A DNA stretch of 64,000 nucleotides from Amoebophrya sp. A120 (GCA_905178155.1 CAJINV010000001.1:15128142-15192141), one strand, 5' to 3'. Numbered from the stretch's first letter, positions 9,101 to 64,000 are shown. Translations and numbers: made by a program. Notes: generated by a model not told the origin, from the letters alone.

Positions 9101-9881
9101 CTCGGGTGAAGCATTTTTAGAAGCGGAGTAGGCACGTGTGCTGGTCGTCTTCACTTTTGCCGTTTGCAGGTTAGTACAGTGAGGGACTGTTATCTTGCTG
9201 AAAAATTCATTTCAATTTCCCAACTCAACAGGCAAGCTGCACTGGAAAAGTTCAAGGGCGGACAGTTGGATTTCCTCATCGCCTATCAAATGTAAAAATG
9301 TCTGGGTCTGGAAGAATGCGCCTTGTCATGCTAAATCTGCAGCATGCAAAAATCTGTGTTGCATGATTACCAAAAGTCGTCCAGTTTTGACCAAGTCGGG
9401 AGGTAGTTTCTCATGCAGGATAGGCATTAGAAAGGTCTCGCAGACTCTGTCGTGCTAGGTCCTGCATTCCAGACCTCCCTCATGGGTCATGGAAAAGCAG
9501 CATGACAAATCGCGCACTCTTCCAGACCCAGACATTTTTACATTTGATATCGCCACCGACGTCGGCGCCCGCGGTCTGCACGTGGAGGGGCTCCCGCACG
9601 TGATTTGCTTCGACATGGCGACAAGCATCGACGAGTACAAGCAGCGCATCGGGCGAACGGGTCGTCTCGGCAAGAAGGGAATTTCCACCACGTTCCTCAC
9701 CCCGGCCGACGAGGGGCTGTACTTCGAACTGAAGGAATTCTTGATCGCGTGCGAGAAGCAGGTGCCCCACGAGCTGTCTTCGCACGAAGCCGCCAAGGTG
9801 AAGCCCGGGACAATCACCGAGTCCGGCCACATGGCCGGCGCAAAGACAAATGTGGTCTACTCCAGCACTTTTCGCGGCTAG
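6164..9881 (+). CDS. PRP28: Spliceosomal DEAD-box helicase Prp28/DDX23 (multi-exon)
   Basis: FNFEWAADDDT, LFGRG, HWSAK..MTVRDWKIFRED, AETGSGKT, ATPGRL, DEADRM and RIGRTGR. Canonical introns at 6668-6840, 7458-7619, 8311-8459, 8666-8816 and 9044-9231, plus two introners (7080-7400, 9284-9549). Confidence 0.92.
7080..7400 (+). mobile_element. Introner family A (321 bp), non-canonical intron in PRP28
   Basis: TIR tatcgtaaggaaaaatcccccctccccatatc / gatatggggaggggggatttttccttttgata. Imperfect TSD accaa/gccaa. Removal gives EQRK(T/A)NTFYENM. Confidence 0.9.
9284..9549 (+). mobile_element. Introner family B (266 bp) in PRP28
   Basis: 32-bp TIR tatcaaatgtaaaaatgtctgggtctggaaga. TSD tcgcc. Removal restores the conserved LIA|TDVGARG motif. 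Confidence 0.95.
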
Positions 9882-10534
9882 GAGTCGGGAGGGTGCTTTT
9901 CGTCCGTGCCGACAAGAATTCGTCTTGTGGTATTTTGTACGTACTACTAAAACAAGCGACAATTCATGATCAAGGGCAGTTCCGTAGAAAGGCTCTGGCG
10001 ATAGAGTCTGACATTGATTGTAGCGATCAATTTCATGATCGCCGCCAACTACACCCTTGCGGTTTCACTTTTTCAAAAAAAGCACGCTACGCCGCGAGTT
10101 TTCCCGACGACACGTATTCTGATCGGTTGTTTTGCTTCGCGGTGCAGTGCGAGCGAGCAGGTATCTAAATCAAGGGTCATAGTACCCTCTATGGCGGTGT
10201 TCGCGTTACCATTTGGAACAATCGACGAATGAATAAAGAAGAAAATGTCTCCTAACTACAGTGTGTCGCATCCTCGTCCTCTCGTCCTTGTGAATCGCAA
10301 TCGTCTATCGATCTTACATTAGAAGTCGCAGGAGACGCCACGGTGAGCGAGGGCCTTGACTGCTCGAGAATTGAAAAGGGGGCTTGCGAGTGATCCGCTT
10401 CCGTTGACATCGATAACAAGATTTCGTTGGTGTCTTGTTCGTAGTAGTACAGAGGCTGGATAGAAGCCGAACTGACAGAGAAGAAGTACTTCACCTCCAG
10501 TTCACTAGGAGCCTAAACATTAGTAGAAAAAAAA

Positions 10535-13373: not shown

Positions 13374-16368
13374 ATGATGATGTTGTTTACTCCTCGTCCC
13401 ACTTCTTTTGTGTCGCTAGCTCTGGCGCTGCGGGTTTTCGTCACATCGGAGGCAAGAGAGCCGGTTGTACCCAGTACGGTAGTACAAGTGTCGAAGGACC
13501 CCCCGCTGCAGCCGATTCTAGTTCCGGTTGAGGATGACGACGACCCGGACGACCCGGACGATGAGTACACGTACGCGAAAGCACTCAAGTCTGACCCTTT
13601 TTTTTTCACGCGGACTTCGCGGTTGCGCCGTCGTTTCTGGCCTTCAGATGTGGAGGGAATTCAGTGGGACTTGCGGGGGCATTTATTGGATGAGAGAGCG
13701 CCAGCCCCCTCGTGCAAGCGGAAGCCGAGAAATTTAGGCGCGCTGTTGAAGGGGCGTGAGAGCGCAACACCAGTCGAAACGTGCCTTTTACCGGATAAGA
13801 CGGAAGGGCTCAAGCTGCCGGCGGATAGTGCGATGGACAGTCTGCGCGCAGCAGTAGAGACGGTCTTCCCGACGACGCAGGCGAAAGCGGAAACTTCAGC
13901 AACGACGAGCGCTGAGGGAAGAATCGCAGATAATGTCCTCAACATTTGCGTTCTGGGTCCTCTAGATCGACACTACCTGCGCACCTCGGTCCGGCCGCTG
14001 GTCCAGTTTACATCCGAGGAACCGACGCGGCGACTGCGGCTCATCGCCCCCCGCGATCAGCTGACGGAGGTGAAGGACGACCTTCTCTCCCTCCTTCCTA
14101 CCGCAGACCAGTTGCAATTGCTGCCACAGGAGCACGTCTCTCCCATCGATTTCGACGTACCGGAAGACGAGCAGCCTGCAAGTCTGAAAGAGCTCCGCGC
14201 GTGGAGTGCACACACCGTCGGAAGTGGCGATAGTGGTAGCGACAACATCTTCACTGAGAAACGAAGCAATACTACCGAAATAAATGTGAAAAGAACTGGG
14301 TGTCACGTGCTCTCCCTGCATGCTGGTTCCCAGGGGTTTCACGGGGAGCTGCTGAAAGCGCTGAGCGGAAACCTGCCCCGAACACTGCTTCTGTTCGACG
14401 CACACGAGTTATTACAATGAAAAATGCCCCCCCCCACCCCCGAACTTGGGAGCATTTGTATTGCAAACCTTTCCAAATGAAACATTCGCCGTCTTGCATC
14501 TATCAGCATCACAAGTTTCCAATCGTGAATAGCAAAAATAATTTGTATTGCAAAAAACCCCAGCTCCAGCAAGAGCGGGGCTTGTCATGCAAGCGATGCG
14601 ATACACGCCTAGACTCTGCATCAGAAAGATTCATACTCCTCTCATGCATGACAAAAAGTTTTCATTTGGAAACTTCGCATCACACACGCGGCGCGGTTGT
14701 TTTAGCATCACACGTGTTTGCAATTTCAGGGGTGGGGGGCACTTTTCACTGTAGTACGAGTGCGACCGGGGCGCGAACCGGGTCCACTGCAGCTTACTTT
14801 TGGCGCAGTTTCGTCGGAGCCACTGCGGGACCCCGGAGGTTCTTGCACAATTAGAAGCACAACATGATCACAGCCACGAGGAACTACATTGGCAGAACAA
14901 GCAAAGAGCTACTGAAAATAATCCAAAACAACTGCCTCTGGGGCTGTGGAACCCGGATTGCTTCGCGACGGACGCGAATAATGTCGTGCAGCTCCCGGTG
15001 AGAAGTTCCTGCGTGTGTGTTGCGGACCCGGACCGGTTCGTTGACGCGGAAGACCACCTGGCGGTTTTGGAGGATGAGCAATGTCGGGAGTTTCAGTCCC
15101 CCTCCGCCCGGTTTGAACAGCTGCACTTGATGGAGCGGTTTCAGCGGCGGAGCCAACTCCGACGGACGTGGTCGCTGCCCGAAGCAAACGACCGTAATAT
15201 AATGGACTGGGCTGCAGAGGAGGAGGCGGTGAAAACGTCCTCTTTCGAGGTGTTCGCTGCGGTGGAAGAGGATTATGGTGCGGAGGACAAAATAATCGAG
15301 GGAAAAGATCATAAAATTGCAGATAAAGAAGACGGGGTTGGAGTTGCAAATACAAGTGCTGAAGAACTTTCTGTGCCAGAAGAGGACGACCCTGAAATAG
15401 CTCATCCAGGTGAAGAGAAGTTCAATATCACGCGCGGGGAGTTCCTCGAGCACCACGGGTTCCCAACGAATTTGTTCCAGAAAAATGCGCGCAGCCAGGA
15501 AAAATTTCTCGGGTACAGTCAGTGGCGCCAGGACTGGTTTCTGTTCCACAACTTCTTTCGCTACAGCCCGAGCAATGGGAGGCAGGGGTTCTTCCTCGAT
15601 CTCGGCGCCTCGCAGCCGACGATATTGTCGAACACCGCGGCGTTCGAAAAGTGTCTGGACTGGAAAGGACTCTGCGTGGAGCCGAACCCCAGTCGGATCC
15701 CAGCCCTGCTAACCTACCGGAACTGTTTGGTCGTGCCCTTCTGTGTGGCGAAAAAGGAAAAAGTTCTCACGCTCATGACCGACCACGCAGGCGCGGCGGA
15801 GGGCATGGCGTCGGAGGCTGCGGAGCCCAGTGCCGTGCCGGACAAGGAGTTTGAAGACGAGAACGCGGTGGACTCTCTGTGTTTTCGGCTGGAGAAACTT
15901 TTGGATCAAATCAGCGTCGGAAGTGCCTCAGAGGTCAGGCACGCGAAGAGCAGGCTTGATGGTGGAGGACAGAGCGGAAGCGGCATCGTGGATGATGCAG
16001 ACGATGTAGTAGAAGAGGGGCTGACTATAGATCTCATTTCTCTTGACGTCGAAGGCCAGGAGGTCGATATTTTGGAAAAGTTCCCCTTCAATAAGTTTTA
16101 CATCCGCGTGTTTCTCATCGAAACGGACCACAGCAACTCCCTGAAACTGGACATCCTCTTGATTGCCGGGGGGTACGTAAAGGTTGCCTTGCTGGGGAAA
16201 GATGCCATGTACATCCACCACAAGTTTGCGAAAGAGCTAGCGACGTGGGGAAAGGAAAATCCGCTCGCCGTTGAGTACCCGGAATACGTCACAATACATC
16301 CCTATTACGAGCATTTTTCCACCTTCCAGCGCCGGTTTCTAGACCCCGACTTCGGGGAAAGAAGATGA
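13374..16368 (+). CDS. Secreted or membrane protein with a C-terminal FkbM-family (Methyltransf_21) methyltransferase domain
   Basis: Signal-peptide-like start. Two ORFs join in frame after introner 14410-14756 is removed. Motifs FFLDLGA..SNT..FE..LDWKGLCVEPNP and IDLISLDVEGQE. Confidence 0.75.
14410..14756 (+). mobile_element. Introner family D (347 bp)
   Basis: TIR tattacaatgaaaaatgcccccc / ggggggcacttttcactgtagta. TSD cgagt. Removal gives DAHE|CDRGANRVH in frame with the ORF at 14800. Confidence 0.9.
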
Positions 16369-18767
16369 TGAAAAGGGGAAAGGGAGATGCACTCCTGAAA
16401 AAGGAGGGGTGAGGAAGCATGTGGAAGCATGACAGTTGTAGTTTTTTTTTGTAAGTAGCTGGAAAACAACAAGAAAAGGTAGAACAGTAAAGAATTGTAT
16501 ATTGAAAATCTCGGGAATAATGATCACGAAAACCGCGGGAATAATGATCCTACCGGTACTAGTCTCGGTGGCCTGACTTTGCAACAGTTCCAAAATCGGG
16601 ATAAGGTTAAAGACTTGCAAGTACCGTCTGCGTCCGGCTCCCAGCAGCAACAGCAACAAGCTTCTACGTCTTCTGGTAGCAACATCAACAATTCTTCTAA
16701 AAGTAATGCTGTTAATACCGGTGCCAGATCCTCCAGTCCTTCAGCCGGTTCGTCTCTGGCTCGACGCATGCAGGACACGCACCTCTCGGACGAAGATGAT
16801 GATATGAAGGAGGAAAATAGTCGTGAGGACCGGTCTAACAAGCTGCAGCGTACTAATCGTGAAGGCAGGCATCGGGCCCGCAGTAAGAATTCGGACCCAC
16901 GATCCAGCCGTGAGGAAAATCGTAGCCGGGAACGCGAAAGAAAGACGCCAGCAAACAGTCCAGGCGGCAGCCCCTCCCTCCAGCCGCAAGACAAAAATAA
17001 AACGAATCAGAACCCGTTTACCCAGCGGGCTGAAGATATGAATGGAGTGGAGGAAGTTAGAGGATAGATTGCTTTCGGCTTCACGAATATTGCTTACAAC
17101 TAATTAATCGCTTTCGCATTAATCACACCGATGGTTGCCTGAAGTGCATCAGGCGTGAGAACCGGGATGACATTTTGATGCGCTCTATTTTTACTTGTAT
17201 TCGCATTTGCATACTCATCTCTGTGCTGTTTTGCAGTGCATCAATCACTTGGCTCTTTATTTCCTGCATTTGCATGACTTACTGTTTGCTGCCGCACGGG
17301 CAGCCATTTACGTCTGATGAGCGCGTCTTTGCTACAGGATGGAAAATTTGAAACTTGTATGTTTTGGTGAGGAGTTCTCCCTTTTCCCTTTCTTCTGAAA
17401 TGATGTGCTTTGGACAAAACCGATGCTCAGTCGTAAATATATTTGTGTTGCATAAATGAGCTTTTTCGCACGTTCACACACAAATTTGTATTGCAAAAAT
17501 CTTGGTTCTCGCATGATCCGGTTTTGTTCTTGGATAAATGCCAACTCTCGAAAGCAGCATCACAAAAATGCATTACAAGTTGCGCTTTCTTATGCTGAGT
17601 TCTTCCCCATGCAAAATCATAATAAGGTCCTGAGATCGGAAGATCCAAAGGATGAAAGTTCAAAAAGGAAATTATAATCAGGCTCTTTCTTCATGCTTTT
17701 CATTATTCATGCTGTTTTTCATTATATTTTTGAGGTGACTAACCAGAAATAACTAGCTATCTAGCATAGGCACTATCGTATTTTGTTAGGTTTACGATTA
17801 GGACGTGGTATACGCTAGCTGCGCAAGTCGGTTAACAGTGAACCGGTACCCACGGGTGTTGACCGATCGACCTATTGCCAGCTAGGGGAGCACCCATGCG
17901 GTGGCAGGATCCAGCGCCCCTAGGTCGGGGGCGCTCCTGCCTTCGCCGTATGGGACCCCGTGGGCAGAAGTATCCACTCGCGCGCCGCGCCCGCTCTAGT
18001 TAGGGTCTACTTTCGTTCCTCTTCTTCTCTTCATTCAAACACGACAGGATAAGCACACAAAAATACGCAGTTCGCCCCGGCTACAGTGATCTACTTAAAC
18101 TTCAATTTTGATTTTACATTGCAATATATTGAAAATCTAGATTAAGGGGAAAAGAAGTTAGTTGTTGGTCTTCGTCAGTAGCTGGAAAACAGCATTAAAA
18201 GTTTGGATAAAAGGAACAAAAAAGTTAGTTTTCAGTAGCTGGAAAACAGCAAAAAGCAAGTAGAACAGGAAAAAGTCAAAACTTTTGGAAAAAAAAGGAA
18301 AAAGAGATTAGGAAACGCGGCAAGATTTTTTTGTCCAAGGAACACGCAAGTTGTTGATCAGATGAGGCGCAAGTCCAAAAAACCAGAGGAGACATATTTA
18401 TACGGTCCAACACTGTTCAGCTTCTCATCACCATGATCAGAACGAAATTGGACCCTGATTGGATCTTCAGAATCGTGGCGGCGCTAGTATAGATCACCAA
18501 AAGACACCAGAGTGACGGATCATCGACGACAAGTTACAGATTGTGTGAAACAAAAAGTTTTTTGATGCTCCGTCGATGAATCTATTATGTTTGCAGGCAA
18601 AACTTTCTGAAGTGCGTCGTTGGCCGGTGCTTCAGGAAAAAATAGACTTGGTTACTACGCAATCGATACAATGATGGTTTTAGAACTCGCTTCGATTAGT
18701 GTCGCGTAGGAGTCTTTCTCCACTTTGCCTCTAGCTTATTTTACTATTGCCAAGAGCAGCAAAAACC

Positions 18768-20237
18768 ATGGCGCACTCGCTCGCGTACGAGGTGAAGAAG
18801 ATCCAGGAGCTGAACGAACAGGAGCTCGCGCGGGGCATTTTCGATGCGAAACACTCCTGGCACCGAGAATTCCGGGAGTCGGCGTATGTCCGCGTCGATC
18901 ATCTAGACAAAAGGCTCACGGAGGGTGATCTATCAGAGTGAAAAATCCCCCCTCCCCATATCGAAACGAAGTTTCTGATGCTGGATTTCCATACACAAAT
19001 CAGATTTGTCTTGCAGTAGAGGAATGCAGGCATATGTCAAGCCTCAGTCGAGGAGTTTGACGTAGGCGCCTAGCATGACAAACGTGTATGCTCTAAGCCA
19101 AACAGCATCACAAACCGCCTGCAAAATGCGGAACGCTTTCTGGACTTGCCTTCTTGCAAGACAGACAGGATTTGAGTTCGCAAATGCGCATCACAAATTT
19201 TCAGACGGATACGTTTTCGATATGGGGAGGGTGGATTTTTCCTTCTGATATGATCTCGTCACTGTTTTTTCCCAGTTTGGCGAGATCGCGGACCTCCGGT
19301 TGATAAGGGACAAAGAGATATCCTGAGTAAAAATGTCCCCACCCCAGAGTTGTCATGCAAATCTGCATCCCAAAAAAGTTTGTCATGCGGAGCCCCATGA
19401 GAGCCATTTTCTAATCCTGTTTTGGAATTTGTGATGCTAGAATCAGCATGATATGCTACATCTGTAATGCTTCGGAACTAGCTAAACAGAATTACACTAC
19501 GAGGATAAACCTGTCATGCGAAACAACCAGAGGTGGCTGATTTGTCTAGCGGATTTCCCATCTTGACTCTGGTGTGGGGACATTTTTACCCAGGATAAGA
19601 GACGGGAAAGTCGCGCGGATTCTGCTTTGTCTGCTACGAGGACACGCGGTCGGCCGCCTACGCCGTCGACAATATGAACGGCTACCAATTGTGCGGGAAA
19701 GTGATGAAGGTGATGCACGTATTGAAATACGAGGTTCCCATCTTATTAGACGAAACGCAAGTAGACGCCGAGGGGAACCCAATTCAGCTGGAGTACAAAC
19801 CGACTGGTGCGGAGGGCTACGGCGTCGGCATCACCGCACAGTTATCCAGTGTGAAAGCGGACATAAAAACGAAACACATCAGCACGAGCAGCAACAAGAA
19901 AACGCTGATGGACGAGGAAGATGCGGATTTGGAGATGTTTGAGCAGCAGCTCGTGAAAACGGCGGAAAAAGGGAAATTGTTGCAGGACAAAGCCACGAAA
20001 AAAGCGGAGAAGAAGCGGCTGAAAAAGGAAAAGAAAAAGGAAAAGAAACGAAGGAAAAAAGAGAAGAAGAGAAAAGAGAAAAAGCTGAACACGGGCAGAA
20101 ATAACCAAGCTGTCGATTCAGACAGCGACAGCTCTTCATCTTCCTCCTCGTCTAGCAGCAGTAGCGACAGCTCGCCCGCTGCGCGAAAAAGTGCACGGGA
20201 AACAGTACGGAAGCGGTCTCGTGGGAGAAATAAATGA
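18768..20237 (+). CDS. RBMX2: RES-complex RRM protein RBMX2/Snu17(Ist3)
   Basis: After two introners are removed: KKIQELNEQEL..SWH..ESAYV..LTEGDLVTVFSQFGEI..IRDKETGKSRGFCFVCYED..AVDNMNG, followed by a Lys/Ser-rich tail. Confidence 0.92.
18931..19250 (-). mobile_element. Introner family A (320 bp), inverted relative to the 7080 copy
   Basis: Near reverse complement of 7080-7400. TSD tgatc. Removal gives TEGDL|VTVFSQFG. Confidence 0.95.
19319..19597 (+). mobile_element. Introner family C (279 bp)
   Basis: TIR tatcctgagtaaaaatgtccccaccccagagt. TSD agaga. Removal gives RDKE|TGKSRGF (RNP1 region). Confidence 0.95.
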
Positions 20238-20840: not shown

Positions 20841-20862
20841 TTCGTAGCCATTGTTGCTCAAG
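20841..20862 (+). other. Relic dinoflagellate spliced leader (DinoSL)
   Basis: ttcgtagccattgttgctcaag matches TCCGTAGCCATTTTGGCTCAAG at 19/22 positions, 49 nt upstream of ATG 20912. Confidence 0.75.
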
Positions 20863-25453: not shown

Positions 25454-28400
25454 ATGTCGACAGAAAGGGAGCTGGAACGGCGGCAGATGCAGGAGCGAAC
25501 CGCATCGACCCGCCGGACGATGAGTGAGCCCGGAGGTTCTCTTCTAGATGGCGTCGCTCCTGCTTCGCAATCCTCCTCGTCCCAACATCAGGGACAGCAT
25601 CTGTTGCGCGGCTCCGCTGGAAGGACAGTTCTTTCACAGGGTGGAGTGATTGTCGGTGCATCAGGAGCGAGCGGCAGCAGTTCCGCTGACAATACTCGAA
25701 GCAGAACAGCAGGCAGGACCACTCCGGCCTCGTCAAAATTTTCCGTGCCCTACTATGAAGGAACCGGTGCGATTGCAGCATCAGGAACTTCTTTCGGTAG
25801 CAGGAGTAGCTCCAGTGCTAGTATGGAAACAGATCATGGAGATGGAACGACATCAGCGAGTGCAGCAGCTCGCGGCCTCCAGGTGGAGGAAAATAGAAAT
25901 ACAGGATTGCAAAAAAGACATCGTCGGGAAGATCAACATGAACATATCATGCACCAGTTCCGGAACGGAAGAAATCAAAATCACGAGCAATCCCTCCTGG
26001 TCTTCCACAAATACTACCTAGAGGACGATATCAGCCAGTTGATAAACGCGCAGAAACGGCTCCTGGTGGAGAAGAACTCTTTTTTATCCGGGGGTTTGAT
26101 CGTGGGCCTGGTGATCGGGTTTCTCTTTCTTTTCGCCGGCTTCCTCTGGACGCGGCGGTGGGTGAAGCAGAACGTAATGGGCGAGACCAACAAGGACCTG
26201 TTCTTTCAGATGTCGACCAAGCACGAGCGGCTGGCGGAAGCGAATAAACACATCCACCTGACTATCGTGATGAAAAACGTCCCCACACCAGAGTCAAGAT
26301 GGGGATTTTGCAACACAAACCTAGGAGTTTTGGGAGTCACGCATGACAAGTTTCAGTCCGTAAGGTAGTGCAAGTTAGCAAGGAAAGCCGCATCACAAAT
26401 CGATCTGCTGATCCTGTTTACAGCATTACAAGTTCCCAAACACGATTGAAAATACCTGTCATGGGGTTGCGCATCACAAATGTTCCTGTCATGGCAAATC
26501 TGCATGACAACTCTGGTGTGGGGACGTTTTTACTCAGGATACTGACCCGGAAGACCGCGGAGATGCACCACCCGACTTTGTATCAACTGTAAAAATGTCT
26601 GGGTCTGGAAGAAAAAGAATGCAACTTGTGATGCTGAATTTGGATTCCAAAAAAATCTGTATTGCATGAGCAGCAAAGGGAATGCGATTTTTGCTACGCG
26701 GAGAGGGCATTTGTCATGCGGAATAGGCATCGCGAAGCCCTCAAAAAATCTGTGATGCTAGGGCATGCATCACAGACATCATGGCCAATGCAAAACATGC
26801 ATGACAAGTGTGTCAGACATTTTTACATTTGATACTTTGGAGTCCTTAGACGGCAGTGTGTGGGAGGTAAAAGTGATCGACCACTACAGAAATTCGGGGC
26901 GAGTCACCCTACCGGAAGCTCCCGTGGAATATGACGACGATATGAGGCCTGTACTGTGACTGATTGCATTTTGATGTTTTCGCTATTTTGATTGCATTTC
27001 GACTTCCATGTTCCACTCAGCTGCTGTTGAATTGTTCACGATAGTACTTTTTCGTCATGGACGCTGCAGTAGGAGGTTTCTGTCTACACGATCATACTGT
27101 AGTCGCACCCGGTAAATAAAAACCTCAGGTCGTCAGCAAGGCGTTTAGCGGGCACTACCGATTTTCACTCACCTTCAACCTCGGGCACATGTACAACATC
27201 ACCGGCCTCGGGTTCGACGAGACCGATGGCACCAGTACGCTGCAGGGCTTCTATGAGGAGACCAACGGCGTGATGATTTTCGAAGAGAAGTTTCAGCGCA
27301 CGGACAGCAACACGCGGCAACCGATGAAGGCCATGGTGGAGTTGCTACTGCTCGGGCACGTGGGGCAAAGACGGTCCATGAAGGGCAAGTCCGTTCCCAC
27401 CACCAGAATACCGCCCTGCATCATTGTCGGAGCCGACTGTTCCGACGGCGCCGATACCTCTTTACCAATTGCAGAGGAATTTAGATTGCCCGGTATATAG
27501 CTTTTAAGAAATAATAAATCATGGAAAACTTTCGTTGGAGTTCAGTGTTTTCGTTCTGTGTCGGACTAGATGACGAGTACTTACATAGATACTGTGCCAC
27601 ACGCATAGAAGCTTAAACCGCTCGTCCAAACATTACTTATCAGGCGACGACAGCACCGGGGGGTACAAGAAAAAGCGGAGCCGGGTATATTGAGAGGAAA
27701 AATCCCCCCTCCCCATATCAAAACAAAATTTCTGATGCTGGATTTGTGTACACAAATCCGAGCTGTCTTGCTGGAGAGCACTGCAGGCCCATATCAAGTG
27801 TGAGTAGTAGAGAGGTTTTGGCCTAGGCACTTAGCATGAAAAACGTCAGCGCTGTAGGCCCGACAGCATGGCAATCCGCCTGCACAATGCGGCGGAGCCT
27901 GCGGAGTTGCCTTCTTGCAAGACAGACACGATTTGTGACCACGTATCAGCATCACAAATTTCCAAATGGCAATGGCAATGTCGGTGCATCACAAATTTCC
28001 TACGCTGGACAATGGCAATGTCGGTGCGGTTGTTTTAGCATCACAAATTTCCAAAAATATACCTTTTCAGTATGGGGAGGGGGGGACTTTTCCTTTTGAT
28101 AGGGTACCGGCGAAGCCCATGGCGGGGTTGGTGCGGAAGATGACGGGCGCGTTCGGTCTGGAGGTCAAGGAGAAGAAGCCGGGTTCCCCCACCAGCAGCC
28201 GGAAACTGGCCCCAGAGCCAACGAGCTTGAACCCCAACGATAAGAGTCCGCGGGTGTCGGACGTTGGAAAAGGGAAGAAACCGGCGGCGAGCCCGCGCGG
28301 CGGAGTGGTTCACGACCCGCGGGACGACGATTTTCTGGAGAAACTGAAGAAGCAGGAGGTCAGCGCGATGAGGGTGCAGGCGGCCGCCCGTGGTCGACTC

Positions 28401-40415: not shown

Positions 40416-40678
40416 TATGAAATGTAAAAATGTCTGGGTCTGGAAGAATGCAACTCGTGATGCTGCATTTGGATTCCAGAAAAGTCTGTATTGCATGAGC
40501 ACCAAAAGGAATGCAATTTTTGCTACGCGGAGAGGGCATTTGTCATGCGGAATTAGGCATCAAGAAGCTCTCAAAAAATCTGTATTGCTAGGGTATGCAT
40601 CACAGACATCGTGACTCATGCAAAACGTGCATGACAAATCTCGGAATCTTCCAGCCCCAGACATTTTTGCATTTGATA
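40416..40678 (+). mobile_element. Introner family B (263 bp), host gene unresolved
   Basis: Family B TIRs. TSD gaagg, which allows a GT-AG reading. No convincing host ORF. Confidence 0.85.
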
Positions 40679-44208: not shown

Positions 44209-47200
44209 ATGACAACGGGCGAACTAACGAACGTTTTTGTTCTGCCCTTGCGTGAGCAGGTCGTTTTTCCGCATCAGCGCTTCGGAATCAGCTTGGGCAA
44301 GGCAATCTTCGAGCGGGTCTACCAGCACTGCCAGGAGCACCGGACCCAACAGGTTGGCTTGGTCTGCATCGCCTCCAAAAAACACGCGGCGAGCGGCAAT
44401 TTAGGGTCGGCATCCAACTCCAGCGGAGAAACTCTGCCGTATTCTACAAACACTGCGGGACCGAAGAAAGCAGGTACTTAGAAATTGATTCAGTGCTAGA
44501 GATCTGTGACCTTTATTTGAAGATGTTATTTTTGGTGAAGAAATGTCTTCTCAAATGCCCCGCCACTGCAAAGACGAAAAAGTCGATTCTCAAAGGGACA
44601 TGAAATATTTCATCACAAACAGTTGGCGTCACGGTCGGGACTGCAGATCCCAGCAGCAAGGACCTCCCCAGCAAGACTGATGGAGATAATAGCAATGCCT
44701 TCGGGAAGTTCGAGTTGTACAATGTCGGGACGCTGTGCGAGTTGCAGAGCCACGGCCGCGGCACCAGCGGCACCACGGTGTCGGTACAAGCCAAGAGCAG
44801 AATGGAAATCAAAAGCCTCCGGATGTACGATTACTACGGCATCGCAACCGTGAGGTTGCTGGACGATCCCCCGCCAGCGGTGCTCCGGAGCGACAAGGAT
44901 ATCAGAACGCAGGTGGAATTGCTGCACGATATCCTATGTAAAAACATCCCCACCCCAGAGTTGTCATGCAGATTTGCAAGCGCAAGAGCATTTGTAATGC
45001 GCATCCCCATGGGAGGCATTTTTCATCGTGTTTTGGAACTTGTAATGCTGCAAACAGGATAAGGAGATGGATTTGTTATGCGGCTTCCCTTGCTAAGCTG
45101 CACTACAGTACAGCCTGCAACTTGTCATGCGTGACCCCCAAAACTTCAAGGTTTGTGTTGCAAAGTCCCCATCTTGACTCTGGGGTGGGGACGTTTTTAC
45201 ACGGGATACACGAGGTGGTAAAGCAGTTTTCCGAATCCGCTTCCGGGGAAAAGCGACGGGGAATTCTGTCCCTGGGGGACATCCTGCGGTCTCTTTTGTC
45301 GGATGAAAGGTAAAATGAGAAAAAATTTCCCCGCGTAGTGGTAGACTTATCCAGTGTGACGGAATTATGAAGAGGCATGCAATTTTAGTCCATGTGTCAG
45401 TGTACCAGACGTTGTAACAATGATGCAAGATGAACAGAAATCATTGTATGTGTGTTCTACCGAATGCAAGAACTCTGTTCGCAGGTTTCCTTCCCAGCTG
45501 CGGTCTCAATTCGAGAACAACCTGCGTTCGTCGAAACGCGAGCGATTCGCCGAAGATTTGGAGAACAGTCCGCTGGGGGACCAGGGTCAGCTGACCGACG
45601 ATACCGGTTCGTACGACGGATACTCCCCCGGGCTGCTGGCCGACATGATCGCAGCGCATCCGCACTACCGCTTTTCGGTGTTCGAACAGCAAACCGTGCT
45701 TTCGGAGTTCGACGTGAAGCAGCGATTGGAAAAGGTGATCCGCGCTCTGCAGCGCTTGGCCAAGGCACAGAAAATCTCGCAGGAGATTTCCAGCAGCATG
45801 CAAACCCGCAGCGAATCGGAGATGAAGGAGGCCATTCTCCGCAAGCAGATCCGCGACTTGCGGAAGGAACTGAAGGTCGTGGGGAAGAAGAAAAACAAGA
45901 AAGCCGGCGAGAACGAAAACGCGAATTCCGACGAAGACGAGGACAGCGAGGAGGACGAGCTGCAGGCCATGCGGGACAAGGTGGGCCGCGCGCACATGAG
46001 CAAGGCGGCGGAAAAGATCGCGGGCCGGGAGCTGAAGCGGTTGAGTAACATGCAGAGTCACCACCCGGAATACACGGTGAGCAGGACCTACTTGGACCTC
46101 CTCTGCACGCTGCCCTGGAATCGCTCGTCCGACGATGCCGTTTTGCAGTTGAACTCCGCAGCCGCTATTCTTGACGAAGACCATTATGGCTTGGAGAAAG
46201 TGAAAAAGCGCGTGCTGGAGTTCCTCGCGGTGCGGAAATTGCGCTCCTCGGTATTCAGCACAAGCGTAAACGTTGTCACGAATGGCGGAGACGAGGGTAG
46301 TGGTCCACCAGGCGCAAACGACGCCACTGTGACAGACGCTACAAATAACGGAATTAGTACAAATAGTGGATCACCTGCAGACGAGGGGTCCGCGACGGTT
46401 GTGGAGGACCAACAGAACGGTACGGACGTAAACAACCCCGACGCACGTCCTAAAAATACGCCTCCACATCATCTCCCCGTTGTGAAGCGCATCATCCAGC
46501 CAGGCGACATGGGAGGCACTAGAAGTAAATCGCCGAAGGTGGATATGCGCGGCCCGATTCTGTGCCTGCTCGGGCCACCGGGGGTTGGGAAGACCAGTTT
46601 AGGTAAGTCCATCGCGAAGGCCATGGGCCGGCAGTTCCAGCGCATCGCGCTCGGCGGGGTGCGGGACGAGGCGGAGTTGCGCGGGCACCGGCGCACGTAC
46701 ATCGGCAGTATGCCGGGCGTGATCATTCAGGCGCTGCAAACAGCGGGAACGAACAACCCGGTCATTCTGCTCGACGAAATCGACAAGCTGGCACACGGGA
46801 TGACGAGCAACCCGCAGGGGTGCCTGTTGGAGATTCTGGACCAGGAACAGAATTTCGCTTTCAAAGACCACTACCTGAACACGCCGTTCGATCTTTCGAA
46901 CGTCTTCTTCATCTGTACCTGCAACGACCTGAGCACCATCGACCGGCCGCTGCTCGACCGGATGGAAATCTTGGAATTGTCGGGGTACTCCGTCGAGGAA
47001 AAGATTTTCATCGCCCAGCGGTATTTGCTGCCGAAGCAGCGGAAGGTCCACGCGTTGGAGGAGCTGTCGGATAGTGAAGAGTTAGAAGAGAACGGCCCGG
47101 TCGTGGGGGGAAAAGCAGGGTCCGGCGGAAGTCCGGTTACGGCGGATAGTGGTTTTGGTGAGAACTTGTATGGACGAGGGGCTTTCAACGCACCATCCCG

Positions 47201-52010: not shown

Positions 52011-55000
52011 ATGGCCAGGCTTCTGCGGATCTTGCACCTGCTGTGCGCGGCCAGTGCAGACCGAGCAATCCCTCCTACCAACCACGACAGGAGTGCGGAC
52101 GCCGCGCTGCACCATGAGGCTCAGCATAGGTTGGTAACTGAGAAGGCGTCCTCGCCCCAGCAACACTCTACCGATATTCATCCCGATGGGGTGAACGAGG
52201 AAAGCAGCGACAAAGCGAAAAGATCCGCAGGCGCAGCCCCGACTGCCCGTAGTCGCGGAAAAATAAAATCTGAAGACGCAGCTGCAGCAGCGGCACTTCT
52301 TCAACATGAAAATCAAAACGCGGCTCTCGACCAACAGCTGATCCTCGAGTCCGGTCTTCGTGAGCAAAAAAGCAGCATGCTGTCCGCGCGCAAGCTTCAA
52401 GCGGCGTTTGACGGGAAGCCAAGACCGAAGGAGCCCAACGCGTTTCTGCCGATGAGCCGCCGCGAGGGGATGGAGTACGCCGGGGTGCGCAATCTCACCA
52501 AGGACCACGTCTACGAACAGATCGCCATCCTCCTGCTCGCCTTTGCGGTCACGGGGCTGATGATCTTTGGGCTCTGGTACGTGACCGACCGGGTGAACTT
52601 GACGCACCCGCCCAACGAGGTGCGCGTGGACCCCTACACCGGCGAGGACCTGCCCCGGCCCTTCCAGTTCCTCCGCGACGAGGACTTTCAGGACAAAGTG
52701 GCGGGGTACATGGAAACGTTCCGCGAGAACAACTACTACCTGTCGACGGTCCTGTTTTACCACTTGGGCCAGTCCCTCCTGTTCGTCATCAAAGTGTACG
52801 ACGTGCGGGACGAGATCCCCTGGTACGTGTTGCTGCTGGAAGCCGTGCTCGGCCTCCTTCTGTTCGTCGACCCGTTCGTGACCAACCTGCAGTGTTTCAT
52901 CATGAGCGAGTTCGGCACTTTGGAAAAGCTCAAGTACAAGGAGCTCGCGACCGAGACCATCGCGCTGATTGCGCCGATGCTGTCGCTGGTGATCTCCCGG
53001 CAGCACGAGTACGATAAGGAGGCGGGCAACTACCTCGCGGATCCGGGCAACACGATCGGAACCTTCTGGTTCTCGTTTCGCTACTTCGGGTGTATTCGCT
53101 TGCGGAAGTACTACTTACTGCTTTTCCCGGAGATGTCTTCGGTCCGCTCCCCCGTGGCGCGCGCGTCCTACGCGGTGATTCTGCGATTCTTCGAGGTCTT
53201 CATCTTTTTCTACGTGGTTATGGGAGTGTCAGAATCGAAATTGACAAAGTAGAAAAATTTGTGATGCACAAAATCGATGTCAGTTGGAGCCTCAGTCTCC
53301 AAGTGGCGCATGACAAATTTCGAGAGCCCCCAAATACAGTCTGTGATGCTGTTTGAGCAAAGAAGACTGCTCCTGTCATGCTACTCTGGCAGCACATTGC
53401 ATACCCATAAACAGGCTCACAATCGGTCTCATTTGCCTGCTCCCCAATACAAGCTTTCAGTGACCTACATTTTATGCATCACAAGTTTTTCGATTTTGTC
53501 GATTTCGATCCTGACACATCCATAGTGGTGGTTAGCACCTTATGGGTGGTGGAGTTCGCCGAGGGCTTGTTCCCGCGACTCCTGCCCCAGGCGAACAACT
53601 GGACGCTGGACGCGAGTCTGTGGTTTGTGACCACGTCCGCGATGACCATCGGCTACGGAGACTACGCCCCGGTCACGTTCTTCGGCCGGCTGGTGACCAT
53701 GATTTTTCTCGTCTCGGTGCTGCTGCTCGTCGGGCTGATCGCCGATTTGCTCTCGAAGATGCTGGCGGAAACGGCCAGCGGGCAGGGCCGGTACGTGGTG
53801 AAATCGCGGGTCCCCTACGTCATCTGCGTGGGGAACTTCTCGCCCGCGACCGCAAAGTCCGTTCTCGCGGAGTACTTCCTATCTCACAGAAAAAAGCTGG
53901 CAGGGCATATTTGTAACGCAAAAAAAAACACACAGAAAAACCTGTCATGGGCGACCTCGTAGCATGCTATTTCGGGTATGCAATACAAGCTTTTTTGTCT
54001 ATTTATTTTTGCATTACAAATATGCCCTGCCAGCTTTTTTCTCTGGGATACTTCCACGACGACCAACACGCGGTGCACCGGGATCGGATGGAGATGGTCT
54101 TCGTCCTGGTCGGGCAGCAGTTCAACGGCGTCGCGCAGGCCGTCGGCGAGTGGTGCAGCGAGAATCAGGACTACAGTCCGCGCGTGCACGTGTTTCGGGG
54201 AAATATTACCAGCACGTACGACTACCGGCGCTGCGGCGTCGCGACCGCGAAGGCGGTTCTCGTCGTGCCGAACGTGCAGAACCCGGTGGATAAACAGAAG
54301 GAGGACGTGGACAGTCTGCTCCGCGTGCAGGCGGTGCAAAAGCGGAGTCCGCCAAATTTGCAAGTGATCGTCATCCTGCACTTGATGCGCAACCGGTACA
54401 TGTTCTTGGGCATCATCCCCAGACGGAACCTGATTTGCGCGGACGACTTCAAGTTTCGGCTGTTGGGACGGGTGAATTTCCTCCCGGGGCTGCCGTCGTT
54501 GCTGTGTTCTTTACTGCAGTGCTCGTCGATGTCCGACAACGACCGGTCGCTGTTCAAGCAGCTGGAGTTATCCAAGAAAAAAACATTGTAGGTGTAACTT
54601 TTTTGGAGGAACAGCATTACAAATTTGTCTGGCATGACAGCAGAAACCTGTCATGCGCAGATAGTACGTGAAAACGCCCTGTAATGGACCCTACGATGCA
54701 TGTCAAGCATGACAGACGCAATCACTTTGCATGTTGCGCATCACAAATTTACACTAACAGCGTTTTTTTCTTGGATAGGAGTCCTCCTACCAGGAAGACA
54801 CCTTGTCGAAGAATCAGTTCATGCTCTTCCACGACGAGGAGCTGCATTACGGGCAAGGGAAGGAACTGTACGCGATCACCTTGAACCCCTCCTACGCGAA
54901 GTTCGCCCCGAAAGCCGAGGACATGCCGTGGTCCTGCATCGTTCGGGACGTGTTGTATATCCAAGAAAAAAACTTTGTTAGTGTAACTATCTTCGGCTGA

Positions 55001-57668
55001 CACCATCACAAATTTGCTCTACATGACAGAGAAAACCTGTCATGCGTGGGTTGTAAGGAAAAACACACATGAAAAAAGGGCTTCGTGGCTGTCTGGCATG
55101 ACAGGCGTAAATCTGTTGCATGTTCTGCATTACAGATTTACACTTACACGACAGTTTTTTTTCTTGCATATTGTACCGGTCGAAGAACAAGGACGTGTTG
55201 CTTCTCGGCTACATTCGGTACGACCCGGCAGCGGACACCAGCTATCTGAAGTATGAAAAGGAGGTCATTTTTTTCCCGCCGGATTACGACCTCGCGTTCT
55301 CGCACCCGACGAAAACCAAGGTTCTGGGCATTTTCATCGCGTCCGACGCCTTCGACATCCGCCAGCGCCCGAGCATGGACGTTTTCACGCTGCCCGAAGT
55401 GGACAGCGACGAGGAGGAGTTCGACGAGGCGGCATTCGACGCAGCGGACGATGAGGATAAGGAAACGGAGGAGTCGGATTTGGAGATGCAGCCGGCACTG
55501 GCGGGGAATTTGAGCTTCAAGAGTACTTCTAGAGTGCTTTGGTTGGATAATGCTTTTCTGTGTTAGAGTGATAGGTAGAAGTAGAGTAGTAGTCCAGCTC
55601 TAAGACTAAAAGTCAATTTAGTAGATTTCATGGCCTTCTGCATTTTGCTTATGTGATACCAAAATTAAGGAGCTTTGCCACGTCGTCACCATTATGACAG
55701 GTGAAAGCGACAAGACCGTTTCGGAGCGCGCTCTGACGAAGCACGAGATTAAGATGCAGCGTCTTGCGGTTCTTGCGGGTGTCGACCCCCCCGACTTGTC
55801 TCAGAACTACTCGAAGCACGAGAAGATAAAGGCGGAGAAGGCGCCGCCGAAAGTGTACTACAGACGGAAGATCATCGAGAAGCAACTGCAGTACCTGCGG
55901 CAGCACGAAATCAGCGTGGATAACGTGTACGAGATATCCTGAGTAAAAACGTACCCACACCAGAGTTGTAATGCAGATTTGCAAAGACAGGAAGACTTGT
56001 AATGCGCATCCCCATGAGAGCCATTTCCAGTCGTGTTTTGGAATTTGTGACGCTGTGAACAGGATGAGCAGATGAATCTGTGACGCGGCTGCACTTGCTA
56101 ATCTGCACTACGCTGCAGAGTGCGACTTGTCATGCGTGACTCACAAAACTCTTAGGTTTGTGTTGCAAAATCCCCATCCTGACTCTGGTGTGGGTACGTT
56201 TTTACTCAGGATACGAGATCGGGAGACGGGCGTTCGCGGATCGGTATCTGAACAACCCGCGCGCGCGATCGCAGTTGAAGCCGGGGGAAAACAATCTACC
56301 CTTCGACTTCGAGGGCGATCACTTTCTCTACTGCCTCTGCGGGCCAGCGGCGGTGAGTGATTTGTTTTGCGAACACACTATGGAGACTCCTCTTGGGTGC
56401 CTTTTTCGAGAATCGAAGTCCGTAAAGTTTAAAGCGCCATTGATGTCGTGTCTTGATATATGTCGTGCAACCACGTCCAAGTGTCTTCTATGCTTCTTGT
56501 CAAAACAGGTCGGCCTATCGCTTTCCGTACTGCTGCAAAACCTGGCCCTCGGGCTAGAGGAGGACGGCCCCGATTACTCCGATGATGAGTGGGGGCAGCA
56601 AGAAGTGAAAGTGTACAGCAAGCAGGAGTCTGGGGAGGCGATGGACATGCGCATGCTGGAGCAAATGGACGAGGAGCAGTCGGAGTCCGCCATGTCTCTG
56701 ATTCCCTCGTCCCGAAAGCGGTTGCGGAAGATCGTTTTGGTGGTTCTGTCAAAAAGAAAGCCGTTGGACTGGGACGACGCACTGGCGTTGGCGCGCGAGA
56801 ATCCGCACTTGATCCCCGTGTGGGTGAAGGGCAGCCCAACAAAAATGCTGGATTTGGAAAGGTATATAGATTATGGCATGGGCATTGGCGCATTCAATAA
56901 GTAGGCAGCAATGTTGACAACGGCAGGAAAGAAACAGCCTTGATACATAGTCATCTCCTCCAAAAAAAAAAAAACAGATGCAGTTTCCGGCGGGCCCGCG
57001 TGATTTACGTGCAAGGGTTTCCGACGAGGCCCACGGACGGGGAGTGTATTTTCTGCACCCGCTTAATTGAGTCCACGATTGGTACCGACAGCATGGACCC
57101 CATGCTGCCCATCGTCGTTCCGGAGCTGACCCTGGAGGCGAATTTTCGCTATGTGCCCCTCGGCTTGTCGCCGAAGGTGGATCACCAGGTTTTTGAGGAC
57201 GCCATGCACGCGAAGCGGAAATCGTTCATGCGGAGCCAGGAGTCCTACGCGTTCACGAGCAACGCGTTGGCCAAGCAACCCTTCACGAGATCGGCAAGGT
57301 ACTCCGCCGGCCGGTTGTACGTGAGCAGCATGCTCACATCGCTCGCGGTCAACCAGGTTTTCAACCCCGACCTGGGCACCCTGATCCAGATCATGTCTGA
57401 CGCTTTGATGGTCGTGGAAATTAGCAACGAGTACGTCGGTCAGCCGTACGGGAAACTGTGGAAGTTTCTCCTCTCCCAGCGCCTGCTCGCAGTAGGACTC
57501 CTTCGAAACGCGGTCACGATGGCGAAAACCCTCGGAGCGGCGACCGCGCTCGGGCTGGTTTCGCACGAGTTTCCGATCTGCGCGCCTCCGAAGGACGATG
57601 TGCTGCTGCAAGAGGGAGATCGGGTGTATGTCATGAGACATGGATTACTGTATACCTTGGATAGTTAG
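52011..57668 (+). CDS. BK/Slo-type calcium-activated potassium channel alpha subunit
   Basis: TM helices, pore ASLWFVTTSAMTIGYGDYAPVTFFGR, and RCK motifs EYFHDD, FRGN..DYRR, KGSP..DLER and YSAGRLY. Five introners plus canonical introns at about 55523-55700, 56353-56508 and 56862-56977. Confidence 0.85.
53219..53524. mobile_element. Introner family F (306 bp)
   Basis: About 50-bp imperfect TIR tatgggagtgtcagaatcgaaattgacaaa.. / ..tttgtcgatttcgatcctgacacatccata. TSD gtggt. Removal gives FFYVV|VSTLW. Confidence 0.9.
53880..54050. mobile_element. Introner family G (171 bp)
   Basis: TIR tatctcacagaaaaaagctggcagggcatatttgtaa. TSD cttcc. Removal gives AEYF|HDDQ. Confidence 0.92.
54569..54777 (+). 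mobile_element. Introner family H (209 bp)
   Basis: TIR tatccaagaaaaaaac / gtttttttcttggata. TSD ggagt. Removal gives KQLE|SSYQED. Confidence 0.9.
54958..55170 (+). mobile_element. Introner family H (213 bp)
   Basis: Same TIR and related interior. TSD ttgta. Removal gives RDVL|YRSKNK. Confidence 0.9.
55935..56213 (+). mobile_element. Introner family C (279 bp)
   Basis: 32-bp TIR tatcctgagtaaaaacgtacccacaccagagt. TSD cgaga. Removal gives NVYE|IGRRAF. Confidence 0.95.
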
Positions 57669-60568: not shown

Positions 60569-62043
60569 ATGTTGCCGCGGTGTACCCGAACCAAAAGCGG
60601 CTGTAGCGCCGAGGCGCCACGACTCGGTGCTGCAACGCGAAGTGCGACCACTGCCACGTCCTGGTTTCTGTCCACCGCATCTGTGTACGCTCGCGCTCTT
60701 ACGTTTTGCACGTGTCTGTGTACTACGTTCGACCTGGTCGCGGCCGCCGATTTTTCGGATGCACCGGACGAAATGTTGACGAGCGATGCGACGGCTTCGA
60801 TCAAGAAGCAAAGCAAAGTCCAAACTACCAGCGTCCACAAAAATTTTGCAGCGGAGGACCACACGAATGACGGCGGGAACGCCATGACGATTCTGAAGTT
60901 ACAGAAGGAGGTGGAAGCCCTCTCGCAGGAGAACGCGCTTTTGATGGAGCAGGTAAGCCAGAAGCACGAAGAAGGGCTGCGGCGAGACGAATTGGCACCG
61001 GCTACGACCTCTTTGTCTTCTTTGACTAATGGCAAAAAGCATGGTGCTGCGCAGTCGACATCCTTTATGGACATAACTGCGGGGGAGAAGCAGAATTTAT
61101 TCCCTACGGGAGGAGGAACGAACGAGACCATGGAAATTATGGAGGACGAGAACACCGAATTGGCGACGCTTGTGAACATGCTCGTGCGCAACGGAGAAGC
61201 GTCCCTGGCGGCGCAAGAGCGGTTGGACGACGCCGTCGCCGCGCGGGTGCGCGCGGAGCTTTTGGAGCACAAAGCGAAACGGGAGTGGAGAAACGTCAGT
61301 AAGGTAAGAAAGTGGTGTGGGAAGTTCGAAATTTTCCATTGAACGCTTCGTAACCAGCAATCGCAAGACGATAGGAGGGTATCTGTGTTTCATTGCGGTA
61401 GGAAGCATGTCTGTCAAATTAATGCTCCAGGTTTCCAAGGTAGGAGCTGACGCGGATGGCGATGAGAGAACTTTTTCGTGGCTCGGTCTCACCGCTACCC
61501 CTTGCTGCGGGTCGTTCTTCGGTTGCGGCGAAAGAGAAGAATTTTTTCGGACAGATCGAGTCTATGATTACCGGAGTTCTGGCGCAATTCAGTGGCTTCG
61601 ACAAGGACAAAAACAACGTGCTGGACAAGAACGAGTGCCCGGCGCCCCCGCCGGGTGCGGATGCGAACAACGACGGAAATCTCACCCCGACCGAAATCAT
61701 CACGCACACGTACAACAACTTCATTTCCGTGCTGGAAGGGGCCCGTCCAGGACACGGCGAGAAACATGAGCTCAAGAAGAGCGAGAGCGGGGGACAGAGC
61801 GAGAAGCCGACGTCCGCCAGCATGTTAGAGCGAGATGATTTGGCTCCTTGGGACTACTGGAGTTGGACTTTTGGATGTGGTGGTCTAGCACCACATCAAG
61901 GGTGGCCAGTGGATTACCTATACCCGACTTCGCAGCTCCTCACCGGAGAGTTTCAAAACGTTTTCTCGGGCAGTCCTCCGGAAAACCTGGGCAAAAGCAG
62001 GCTCAACCATCCTCCTCATATGAACGAGTTTTACGCTGATTGA
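60569..62043 (+). CDS. Tandem paralogue 2 of the EF-hand-like protein
   Basis: Highly similar to paralogue 1 except at the C-terminus. Intron starts at 61314 and needs the AG at 61443 to stay in frame. Confidence 0.6.
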
Positions 62044-62715
62044 TAGTGAGTCCTCTTGGCACGTCAACCTGTTTCGCCGCATATGCAGCGTCACGCCTTA
62101 AGGTTAATACTGTCCCACAACGAAAGATCCCGAATGGTACTCATTCAGTATGTTCTTCTAGTAGTGCAGATCGAAGCTATGTGCTGTTTTTGTCTTGGCT
62201 TTTCCTTGGCATCATAGCAATGCAAGGCACGTAAGAAGCCAAATCCATAGCAGTTCCAGACAGGTTAAAATTTTTAGAATTTCAGGCTAAGCCAGTTCAG
62301 TTGTTTTTAGATGCTCTTTCTCAACACATGAGCAAAGAAGAATGTTGTCGCGTGCGTGACTCGATCTTTGGGCTTATCCGTTGGATCAATACAAAATGCC
62401 ACTGACACCGAATGTGGCCTGCGCTCCGAGGTGAATGATCCACCTTCGTCTTACATACAAGTTGATCTCGTGACAGCGACCACCCGACGCTTTCTCTAAG
62501 TATGTAGATAGTGTCTAGATCACGCTTGATTTGCGTTTTTTATTTTTTTTTTCGCGATCATTTAGGTTTTGCTTTTGCTTATCTTTGCCCTCCGAAAGAG
62601 CGGAATCAAAGTCAGTGCGAATATGAATATCCAAGATGGACGAATCCTGTCTTCAGTATTGGAGTGCGTTATGACAGAGCGCTGAGTCCTCGTCCCGCAC
62701 CGATTCCGAAGCGCC

Positions 62716-64000
62716 ATGAAGCGGTCGCGGGAGCGAACGCGGCGACGGGCGCCCGACGGCAGCCTTTTTCGCTTCGACAGTCCACCCCGGGATGCGCAAG
62801 GAAATCTGATAAGCAGCACGAGCGGCGGCAAACAGCCGTTCCCCTTCAATATCTGGCAAGTCCGTCCAGAGCCGATCGTGACAAACTTCTCGAAACTGAA
62901 GAACGTGATTGCCGCGGACAGTTCGCTTTCTCTCGCGGTGGATTATCCTGATTAAAAGCGTCCCCACACCAGAGTCAAGATGGGGATTTTGCAACACAAA
63001 CCTAGGAGTTTTGGGAGTCACGCATGACAAGTTTCAGTCCGTAAGGTAGTGCAAGTTAGCAAGGAAAGCCGCATCACAAATCGACCTGCTAATCCTGTTT
63101 ACAGCATTACAAGTTCCCAAACAGGATTGAAAATGCCTGTCATGGGGTTGCGCATCACAAATGTTCCTGTCATGGCAAATCTGCATGACAACTCTGGGGT
63201 GGGGACGTTTTTACACAGGATATGGATTGCCAGATGGCGATGTCGGAGCTGTACGTCGGAAATCTGCCGCCCGGAATAACCCCCGATATCAAATGTAAAA
63301 ATGTCTGGGTCTGGAAGAATGCAACTTGTGATGCTAGTTTCGATGTCTAAAAAATTTGTGTTGCATGAGCAGGAAAAGGAGTCTAATTTTTGCTACGCGG
63401 AGAGGGCATTTGTCATACGGAATGGGCATCAAGAATCCCCCAAAAAACCTGTGATGCTAGGGCATGCATTACAGGCATCATGGGTCATGAGATGACAAAT
63501 TTTGCATTCTTCCAGACCCAGACATTTTTGCATTTGATACCCGAGCAGTTAAAGCAATTCATAAACCGCTGCGCGGCGGTGCTCGGGATTGGACCGCAAG
63601 CGGGACTAGTGACCGCTAGCAACTACGAAGACACGTCAGACGAGAGCGGGGAGAGCGAAGGGGAAGATGGGCAACCGGCGAAACAATTTGCATTCGGGTT
63701 CTCCTCCTCCAATGGGCGCAGCAGCAAGCAGACGAAGACGCCGACGGGCGTCGTCGCATCCGTGGCGATGGCGTCGAAGGACCGAAATTTTGCGTGGGTG
63801 ACCTTCAGGAAGGACAGGTACGCACTTTTGTCTCTGCAAATGAGCGGCATTTATTTGTGCGGTAAGAAGCTAAGGTTCGGTCGGACCTACGCACAAATTC
63901 GTTTACGTGAAACAAAAAACTCCCTGCCCCACGACCATGCTGCACTTTGCGGACACTTTGCTTCGCATCTTTTGCAAAATACTGAAATCAAATGGGACAA
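62716..64000 (+). CDS. U2AF65-like RRM splicing factor, 3'-partial
   Basis: RFDSPP. After two introners are removed: ELYVGNLPPGITPEQLKQFIN...DRNFAWVTFR...MSGIYLCGKKLRFGR. Confidence 0.65.
62944..63222 (-). mobile_element. Introner family C (279 bp), inverted
   Basis: Near-identical to 26263-26541. TSD tggat. Removal gives LAVD|CQMAM. Confidence 0.93.
63287..63539 (+). mobile_element. Introner family B (253 bp)
   Basis: Family B TIRs. TSD cccga. Removal gives GITP|EQLKQF. Confidence 0.93.

Follow-up and report, generated by a model that had tools for sequence, protein, structure and literature searches.

A conserved subterminal motif shared by unalignable introner families of Amoebophrya sp. 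A120 as a putative binding site for a common mobilising protein

Introner elements in the window

The window analyzed here is a 64,000-nucleotide stretch of DNA from Amoebophrya sp. A120, a member of a genus of dinoflagellate parasites, and its DDX23 exon is 100% identical to an A120 protein. Within their exons, the genes of this window carry short, non-coding DNA transposons bounded by TAT..ATA and flanked by target duplications (TSDs) of 5 bp. Because circularity had to be avoided, these elements were defined without the motif described below: a scan for TA(C/T) and (A/G)TA ends with at least 14/20 paired bases gave 115 candidate pairs, from which pairs whose 5-bp flanks matched well or whose ends paired strongly were retained and nested, cross-element, and internal-repeat pairs discarded, leaving 22 non-overlapping elements (Table 1). 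The 5-bp TSD is perfect in 21/22 of these and 4/5 in A1, and a 6-bp flank match does not exceed 3/6 in any of the 22. Their shortness, terminal inverted repeats (TIRs), fixed-length TSD, lack of coding potential, and many copies agree with the definition of MITEs. They are the A120 introner elements of Farhat et al., 2021 (PMC7789003), described there as having inverted repeats from TAT-N7-AAA, 3–5-nt direct repeats, and non-canonical junctions; the 5-bp TSD falls within that range of direct repeats. The absence of any target-site bias, the symmetric TAT/ATA ends, and the presence of both orientations set them apart from U2 spliceosomal GT-AG introns, which are read in one orientation. Insertions are found in all three reading frames, and Rfam gave 0 matches.

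Table 1. Elements and related features of the window (positions counted from its first letter)
Feature	Position	Strand	Remarks
A1 element, 321 bp	7080..7400	.	TSD 4/5; 3 sites; within DDX23/Prp28 gene
B1 element, 266 bp	9284..9549	.	sites 9323(-), 9500(+)
D1 element, 347 bp, TAT..GTA	14410..14756	.	3 exact sites
Decayed element-like patch, limits approximate	17440..17620	.	weak HMM matches only, best E 4e-4
A2 element, 320 bp	18931..19250	.	orientation opposite to A1
C1 element, 279 bp	19319..19597	.	five co-oriented sites; long terminal stem from folded ends
C2 element, 279 bp	26263..26541	.	orientation opposite to C1
B2 element, 254 bp	26581..26834	.	
A3 element, 414 bp	27688..28101	.	
B3 element, 235 bp	29456..29690	.	
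D-family element, 305 bp minus 5.4-kb insert	30193..35933	.	perfect 5-bp TSD
Nested insertion, 8-bp duplication, AGA..TCT ends	30235..35662	.	3 exact motif copies
E1 element, 157 bp	37879..38035	.	sites 37921, 37952, 37986
D2 element, 309 bp	38195..38503	.	
B4 element, 262 bp	38548..38809	.	
B5 element, 263 bp	40416..40678	.	frame of host uncertain
C3 element, 279 bp	44930..45208	.	in Lon-protease-like gene (naming by eye)
F1 element, 306 bp	53219..53524	.	five sites; A-tract absent
G1 element, 171 bp	53880..54050	.	
H1 element, 209 bp	54569..54777	.	
H2 element, 213 bp	54958..55170	.	GCAT(G/T)ACAG variant only
C4 element, 279 bp	55935..56213	.	
C5 element, 279 bp	62944..63222	.	
B6 element, 253 bp	63287..63539	.	

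The D-family element with the nested insertion was considered as an autonomous partner of the short elements and rejected, as it is a D copy interrupted by an insertion with a different, 8-bp duplication and none of the 10 ORFs scanned in that insertion has a Pfam match. Removal of the entire composite restores the frame of an SMP+C2 gene. The nested insertion contains a foldback-like array of 39-bp palindromic tandem repeats and has enlarged a 305-bp intron to 5.7 kb. Elsewhere in the window, a 314-bp tandem array (50149-51747; 5.1 copies, 97% matches) has 11-bp inverted units inside it, and a gene with EF-hand-like repeats (by eye) is duplicated in tandem at 57850-62050, with introners apparently absent from both copies.

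The shared motif, its conservation, and its geometry

The sequence-only reading had singled out GCAT(C/G/T)ACAA as a word shared by otherwise unrelated introner families and rare, by eye, in exons and canonical introns, and the 9-mer is exact at 9/9 of the positions that it cited. The whole window has 63 exact copies. The 21 short elements, 5,695 bp in all, account for 55 of these (9.7/kb) and the 5.7-kb composite element for six; the other two, at 17557 and 17570 in the decayed-looking patch, are the only copies in the remaining 52,564 bp (0.04/kb). The enrichment is ~250-fold in the window and ~45-fold in 589 kb from a near-identical strain (see below). Dinucleotide-shuffled elements contained a mean of 0.43 words and a maximum of 4 (1000 shuffles) versus the 55 observed, and with one copy per family 21 words were observed versus 0.16 in shuffles; the enrichment over background is thus upheld. 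The exact word occurs in 20/21 short elements (the exception being H2), and no other 7-mers are shared as widely among families as CATGACA and GCATGAC. In refined form, the site is YTGT(C/G/A)ATGC, present at 2–6 copies per element and usually with A-rich bases just before it.

A bait pattern comprising two sites and a TAT-N7-AAAA end recovered 141 metagenome loci, of which 135 are JACKZZ01 contigs. Two JACKZZ01 proteins are 97.5–99.9% identical to A120 proteins; hence, this is a near-identical strain that supplies more data rather than independent proof of deep conservation. In its loci longer than 1.5 kb (589 kb non-redundant), motif-blind calling gave 335 elements, 325 of them ≤600 bp, with YTGTVATGC in 314 of these 325, and in 240/251 of those remaining once 74 bait matches were excluded. 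In the 589 kb sampled, which are biased to element-rich contigs, elements take up 159 kb (~27%). With the window copies included, there are 14 families with at least two members, six of them absent from the window, and six further singletons; eight families are without any bait match. The motif is missing in 0/14 families. The A-tract noticed by the sequence-only reading at many termini is real; however, it starts at position 11 (the TAT-N7-AAA already published in PMC7789003), not 8–10 nt inside the TAT, and is missing in 4/14 families, including F of the window, all four of which still have the motif. AAA follows TAT-N7 in the other 10/14, and the TAT itself is present at 97–99% of ends.

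Across families, BLAST gave matches of 15–29 nt only. With the motif masked, global-alignment z-scores are ≤3.1 among the eight families of the window, except for A2-B1 at 4.7, versus 10.5–10.8 within families; for the six families specific to the second strain, the separation comes from BLAST clustering rather than from such masked z-scores. The window families therefore do not align as one ancestral element but only at the motif, A2-B1 being the highest after masking. Beyond JACKZZ01, the specific pattern had one viral and six other metagenome matches, all chance-like on inspection, and in this search the motif was found in no other lineage. In viral contigs, 59 stretches fit a three-site pattern and were set aside as apparently tandem or chance repeats, and three AT-rich TIR/TSD calls among them bear no resemblance to introner elements. 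An Rpb1 query returned no A120 protein. A text search on spellings of the motif matched no paper, theses and subscription papers lying outside its scope; within that literature, the internal motif, its spacing, and the indications of a role in movement are new, and the elements and their TAT-N7-AAA ends already known.

Within families, 11/12 pair comparisons show that sites defined in one copy are retained in its diverged counterpart at a much higher rate than other positions are, the sole exception being A3 to A2, where the sites are located in an insertion. Motif columns are likewise more conserved than other interior columns in 12/12 families tested (0.80–0.96 vs 0.56–0.84), even as the centre base varies freely. 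In trees of 10 families, the motif change ratio relative to background is 0.17 on internal branches, 0.36 on terminal branches, and 0.42 on the shortest branches, versus 1.0–1.1 for the centre base (1.07 on internal branches), with motif columns having 6-fold fewer changes than other interior columns. These comparisons indicate that purifying selection acts on the motif within families, and they reject its decay at the neutral rate from one ancestor. The terminal-branch constraint is one that sparse sampling can produce, and lasting host selection also fits it.

Inward first sites lie 36–37, 44–48, or 56–59 bp from the end, in classes spaced by roughly one turn of the helix. At 18/28 family ends the first site reads inward (TTGT..GC), with its centre at 36–37, 45–48, or 56–59 bp. 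For the 12 family-level distances (36–37, 45.5–48, and 56.5–59 bp), a period of 10.7 bp fits best (R 0.87; p ~5e-5 assuming independent families, an optimistic value because families may share ancestry). Among non-bait ends with an inward first site, 180/208 fall within these three distance classes, as do the five bait-free families with such a site, and we conclude from these spacings that the distance of the first site from the element end is quantised. At the other 10/28 family ends the first site is reverse-facing and the phasing weak (R 0.46). The two ends of family A have their first sites at 59 and 48; family 12 resembles family 6 plus one helical turn (by eye), and a subfamily of B is shifted by 8–9 bp rather than 10–11. 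Adjacent sites are 31–34 bp apart in 22/54 pairs from 12/14 families, the others clustering near 16 and 48; co-oriented sites are most commonly separated by 31–33 bp, and the distances between sites follow a 16-bp lattice (R 0.71) and not a 10.5-bp one (R 0.12). In families C and 9, the sites are mostly or solely co-oriented. A dyad-offset fit placing both site orientations on one face (R 0.69) needed a parameter chosen post hoc and had another peak of equal height, and was not relied upon.

Orientation, ageing after insertion, and removal from RNA

The host strand could be called for 243/343 elements, and 14/15 confident calls in the window matched + strand genes. Each of the ten families for which four or more calls were made is present in genes in both orientations: the near-polar family C at 19:13, A at 7:15, and B, which is skewed, at 58:33. 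On the sense strand, the word occurs 320 times versus 388 times for its reverse complement.

Mismatches between TSD copies were used as a measure of the age of insertion. Of 549 full-length HMM matches, 519 have both ends, with 0, 1, 2, and ≥3 TSD mismatches in 384, 98, 23, and 14 elements. Motif deviation is 0.042, 0.072, and 0.121 at 0, 1, and 2 mismatches, and with TSD mismatch the share of elements without an exact site rises from 3.6% to 13%, and the exact sites drop from 2.9 to 1.7 per element. With unanimous neighbours as the reference, the motif decays after insertion at 0.73 times the rate of other positions (95% 0.46–1.15; by stratum 0.42, 0.99, and 0.95). This erosion appears compatible with neutrality, the interval leaving room for up to about half constraint. 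Sites number 3.17 in coding-called copies versus 3.16 in the rest at 0 mismatches and 1.5 versus 2.25 at 2, on small numbers and with an imperfect classifier. A site that is near-perfect on landing and erodes thereafter fits selection during transposition. The TAT ends may be maintained after insertion: an anchored test is suggestive (3/162 vs 8/888 deviations), but a cruder blind test gave 2–3% loss, and a near-zero value from the decay comparison is circular. TSD mismatches lie at the third codon position in 41/73 cases, and this excess means that the TSD clock may run slow, the 0.73 ratio being independent of the absolute rate. The third-codon share is 35/55 for TSD positions 1–4 and 6/18 for position 5, a pattern hinting that both TSD copies might reach mRNA.

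When A1 and B1 are taken out together with a single TSD copy apiece, along with the five GT-AG introns, the result is exactly the annotated 765-aa A120 protein (P0001) that the DDX23 exon matches. An mRNA-type contig (X1, record 1) has pieces at 7618-8307 and 9549-10158 with 482 nt between them; the exonic sequence between these pieces is 488 nt, of which 6 letters fit either side. From this length match it follows by arithmetic that three GT-AG introns and B1 with one TSD copy are gone. RNA-level evidence of removal thus covers B1 alone, whereas for A1 we infer it from the annotated protein and for the other elements from restored reading frames. Of the sequence records listed, none is registered as RNA, and two raw RNA runs (X8, X9; 2026) gave just 16 and 21 reads and are uninformative. 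The first base differs between the two TSD copies of A1 (7075-7079, 7401-7405); the upstream copy (Thr) is the one reflected in the annotated A120 protein, and the A25 ortholog has Ala, as the downstream copy would encode.

Candidate readers of the site and comparable systems

The sequence-only reading proposed that the word binds one common trans factor, either the transposase that mobilises the elements or a factor marking them for removal. A common factor is supported by the conservation of the site, its sharing by unalignable families, and its quantised distance from the ends; of its two alternatives, mobilisation is favoured over removal because the elements lie in genes in both orientations and their motif erodes after insertion at a rate that neutrality could explain. 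On these grounds, YTGT(C/G/A)ATGC is probably a subterminal binding site in double-stranded DNA for one common mobilising protein, most likely a transposase supplied in trans. A protein docked on the first internal site would extend to the TAT end along the same helix face, and the additional sites would load more subunits, so that the ends become paired; a 5-nt staggered cut would then generate the target duplication. Spread would be limited to copies with good sites, and we propose that this is why unalignable families keep the same grammar. After insertion, the site would be of little importance, and RNA removal would rely on the ends and the terminal stem, the element being taken out with one duplication copy. 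The elements would thus work like MITE-like transposons with subterminal binding arrays. The end arrays of hAT and Mu/Tn7 are further subterminal repeats bound by transposase. A precedent is Emigrant, a MITE whose subterminal repeats are bound by the pogo-like Lemi1 proteins (PMC1636448). A more specific version, which we put forward tentatively, holds that one integrase-like transposase, so divergent that it escaped annotation and perhaps host-domesticated, mobilises nearly all A120 introners through their grammar and not their family sequence; that grammar might comprise the TAT end, the helically phased YTGTVATGC, and the 16/32-bp lattice.

Alternatively, the site could be a mark for intron removal, at which an RNA- or DNA-bound factor recruits a non-canonical splicing machinery. 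Its presence in nearly all elements, the constraint on terminal branches (0.36, and 0.42 on the shortest), the partial constraint that the bootstrap of the decay ratio permits, and the report that U1 snRNA went undetected (PMC7789003) would all suit such a mark. However, a reader of single-stranded RNA would meet opposite words in near-polar families that occur in both orientations, sites are lost in older copies, coding-called copies retain no more of them than others (with the small numbers noted above), and the end distances are quantised at ~10.7 bp; we regard this role as distinctly unlikely. It is also unlikely, in our view, that the site serves a host DNA-binding or -bending protein borrowed for end pairing or escape from silencing, with an enzyme that reads the TAT ends only. 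The three exact copies inside the 8-bp-duplication insertion, a TAT/5-bp element with no site (see below), the lack of an annotated transposase in PMC7789003, and a 16-bp lattice without explanation could be cited for it, but the near absence of the word elsewhere (2 in 52.6 kb) would be unusual for a general host factor, and the placement of the first site depends on the element end. That the word is read by no protein, being a relic of one ancestral repeat-rich element or a former of RNA hairpins, seems very improbable. The TAT ends and 5-bp TSD common to families, the lattice, which could be inherited, and the half-palindrome within the word are what such descent or folding might leave; yet masking abolishes alignment between window families (A2-B1 at z 4.7 being the highest), the motif changes 6-fold more slowly while its centre base is free, and the co-oriented sites of families C and 9 are unable to pair with each other, so that the relic reading appears largely refuted.

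If the site is bound by a mobilising protein, as we favour, all families would answer to one mobiliser through a single conserved site of set geometry, the signal for movement would be distinct from that for removal, and the motif would be a concrete bait for the missing protein and a search key for an autonomous element. The non-canonical introns of Amoebophrya number tens of thousands, and the text of the genome paper gives no unifying sequence beyond their ends (PMC7789003). Were a single transposase responsible, it would define a new 5-bp-TSD, TA..TA transposon system with passengers otherwise without common sequence, and a large share of the introns of this genome would have been built by it. 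No transposase was found among 157 ORFs (149 by Pfam and 8 more; ~0.6 Mb, <1% of the genome), in which the 138 locus ORFs of ≥230 aa belong to host families or have no match, and none is reported for A120 in PMC7789003. As no mobilising protein was found, the term transposase is used here by inference. One 873-bp TAT..ATA element with a 5-bp TSD, located in non-coding surroundings (L123:13016-13888), lacks the site even when one mismatch is allowed; there may therefore be a second system, or a route that does not need the site. Three further loci (L069:505-1608, L103:4446-5417, and L090:3862-4492) have 400–800 bp of unrelated sequence between family ends, with sites few or one-ended.

Among known systems, Emigrant/Lemi1 likewise has short TIR elements that code for no protein and whose repeated internal sites are recognised in trans (PMC1636448); here, in contrast, the site is common to otherwise unalignable families, is phased to the ends, and lies in elements removed as introns. 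The nonconventional introns of Euglena resemble these elements in being non-GT-AG, in their paired ends, and in their removal via terminal signals, but their 5'-N3CDG signature (PMC12501133) is absent here, G being at position 6 in 4.5% of ends. IS3EU and GingerRoot share TA..TA termini, the lack of a nucleotide-specific target, and GC-rich TSDs (PMC10045372, PMC6839031), the TSDs here being 57% GC. However, their TSD is usually 6 bp rather than 5 bp, and since the 6-bp flanks do not match, we do not file the elements under these groups; GingerRoot moreover has TIRs of 100–150 bp, and an integrase-like ORF was not found among the 157 ORFs scanned here. Ginger1 and Ginger2 have TG..CA termini (PMC6839031) as opposed to TA..TA.

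With regard to previous work on introners, whose literature includes a review (PMC11282704), the text of PMC7789003 describes terminal motifs only, mentioning neither a shared internal site nor any rule of spacing, and contends that transposase-mediated mobilisation in general can be ruled out, whereas we favour mobilisation. In 23 of their 58 A120 rows, Gozashti et al., 2025 (PMC12130899) list families of 106, 149, 160, 208, 252–260, 278, 305, and 320 bp, lengths similar to those found here, with most of these rows given as 'TIR DNA, Unknown' and fam38 as 'Ginger, 5-bp TSD, TA/TA termini'. The word 'subterminal' occurs 0 times in the main text of that study, which ascribes the families to diverse mechanisms and not to one. 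The 873-bp element may relate to its 808–811-bp families; ~50 bp of the left flank of this element recurs shortly past its right end.
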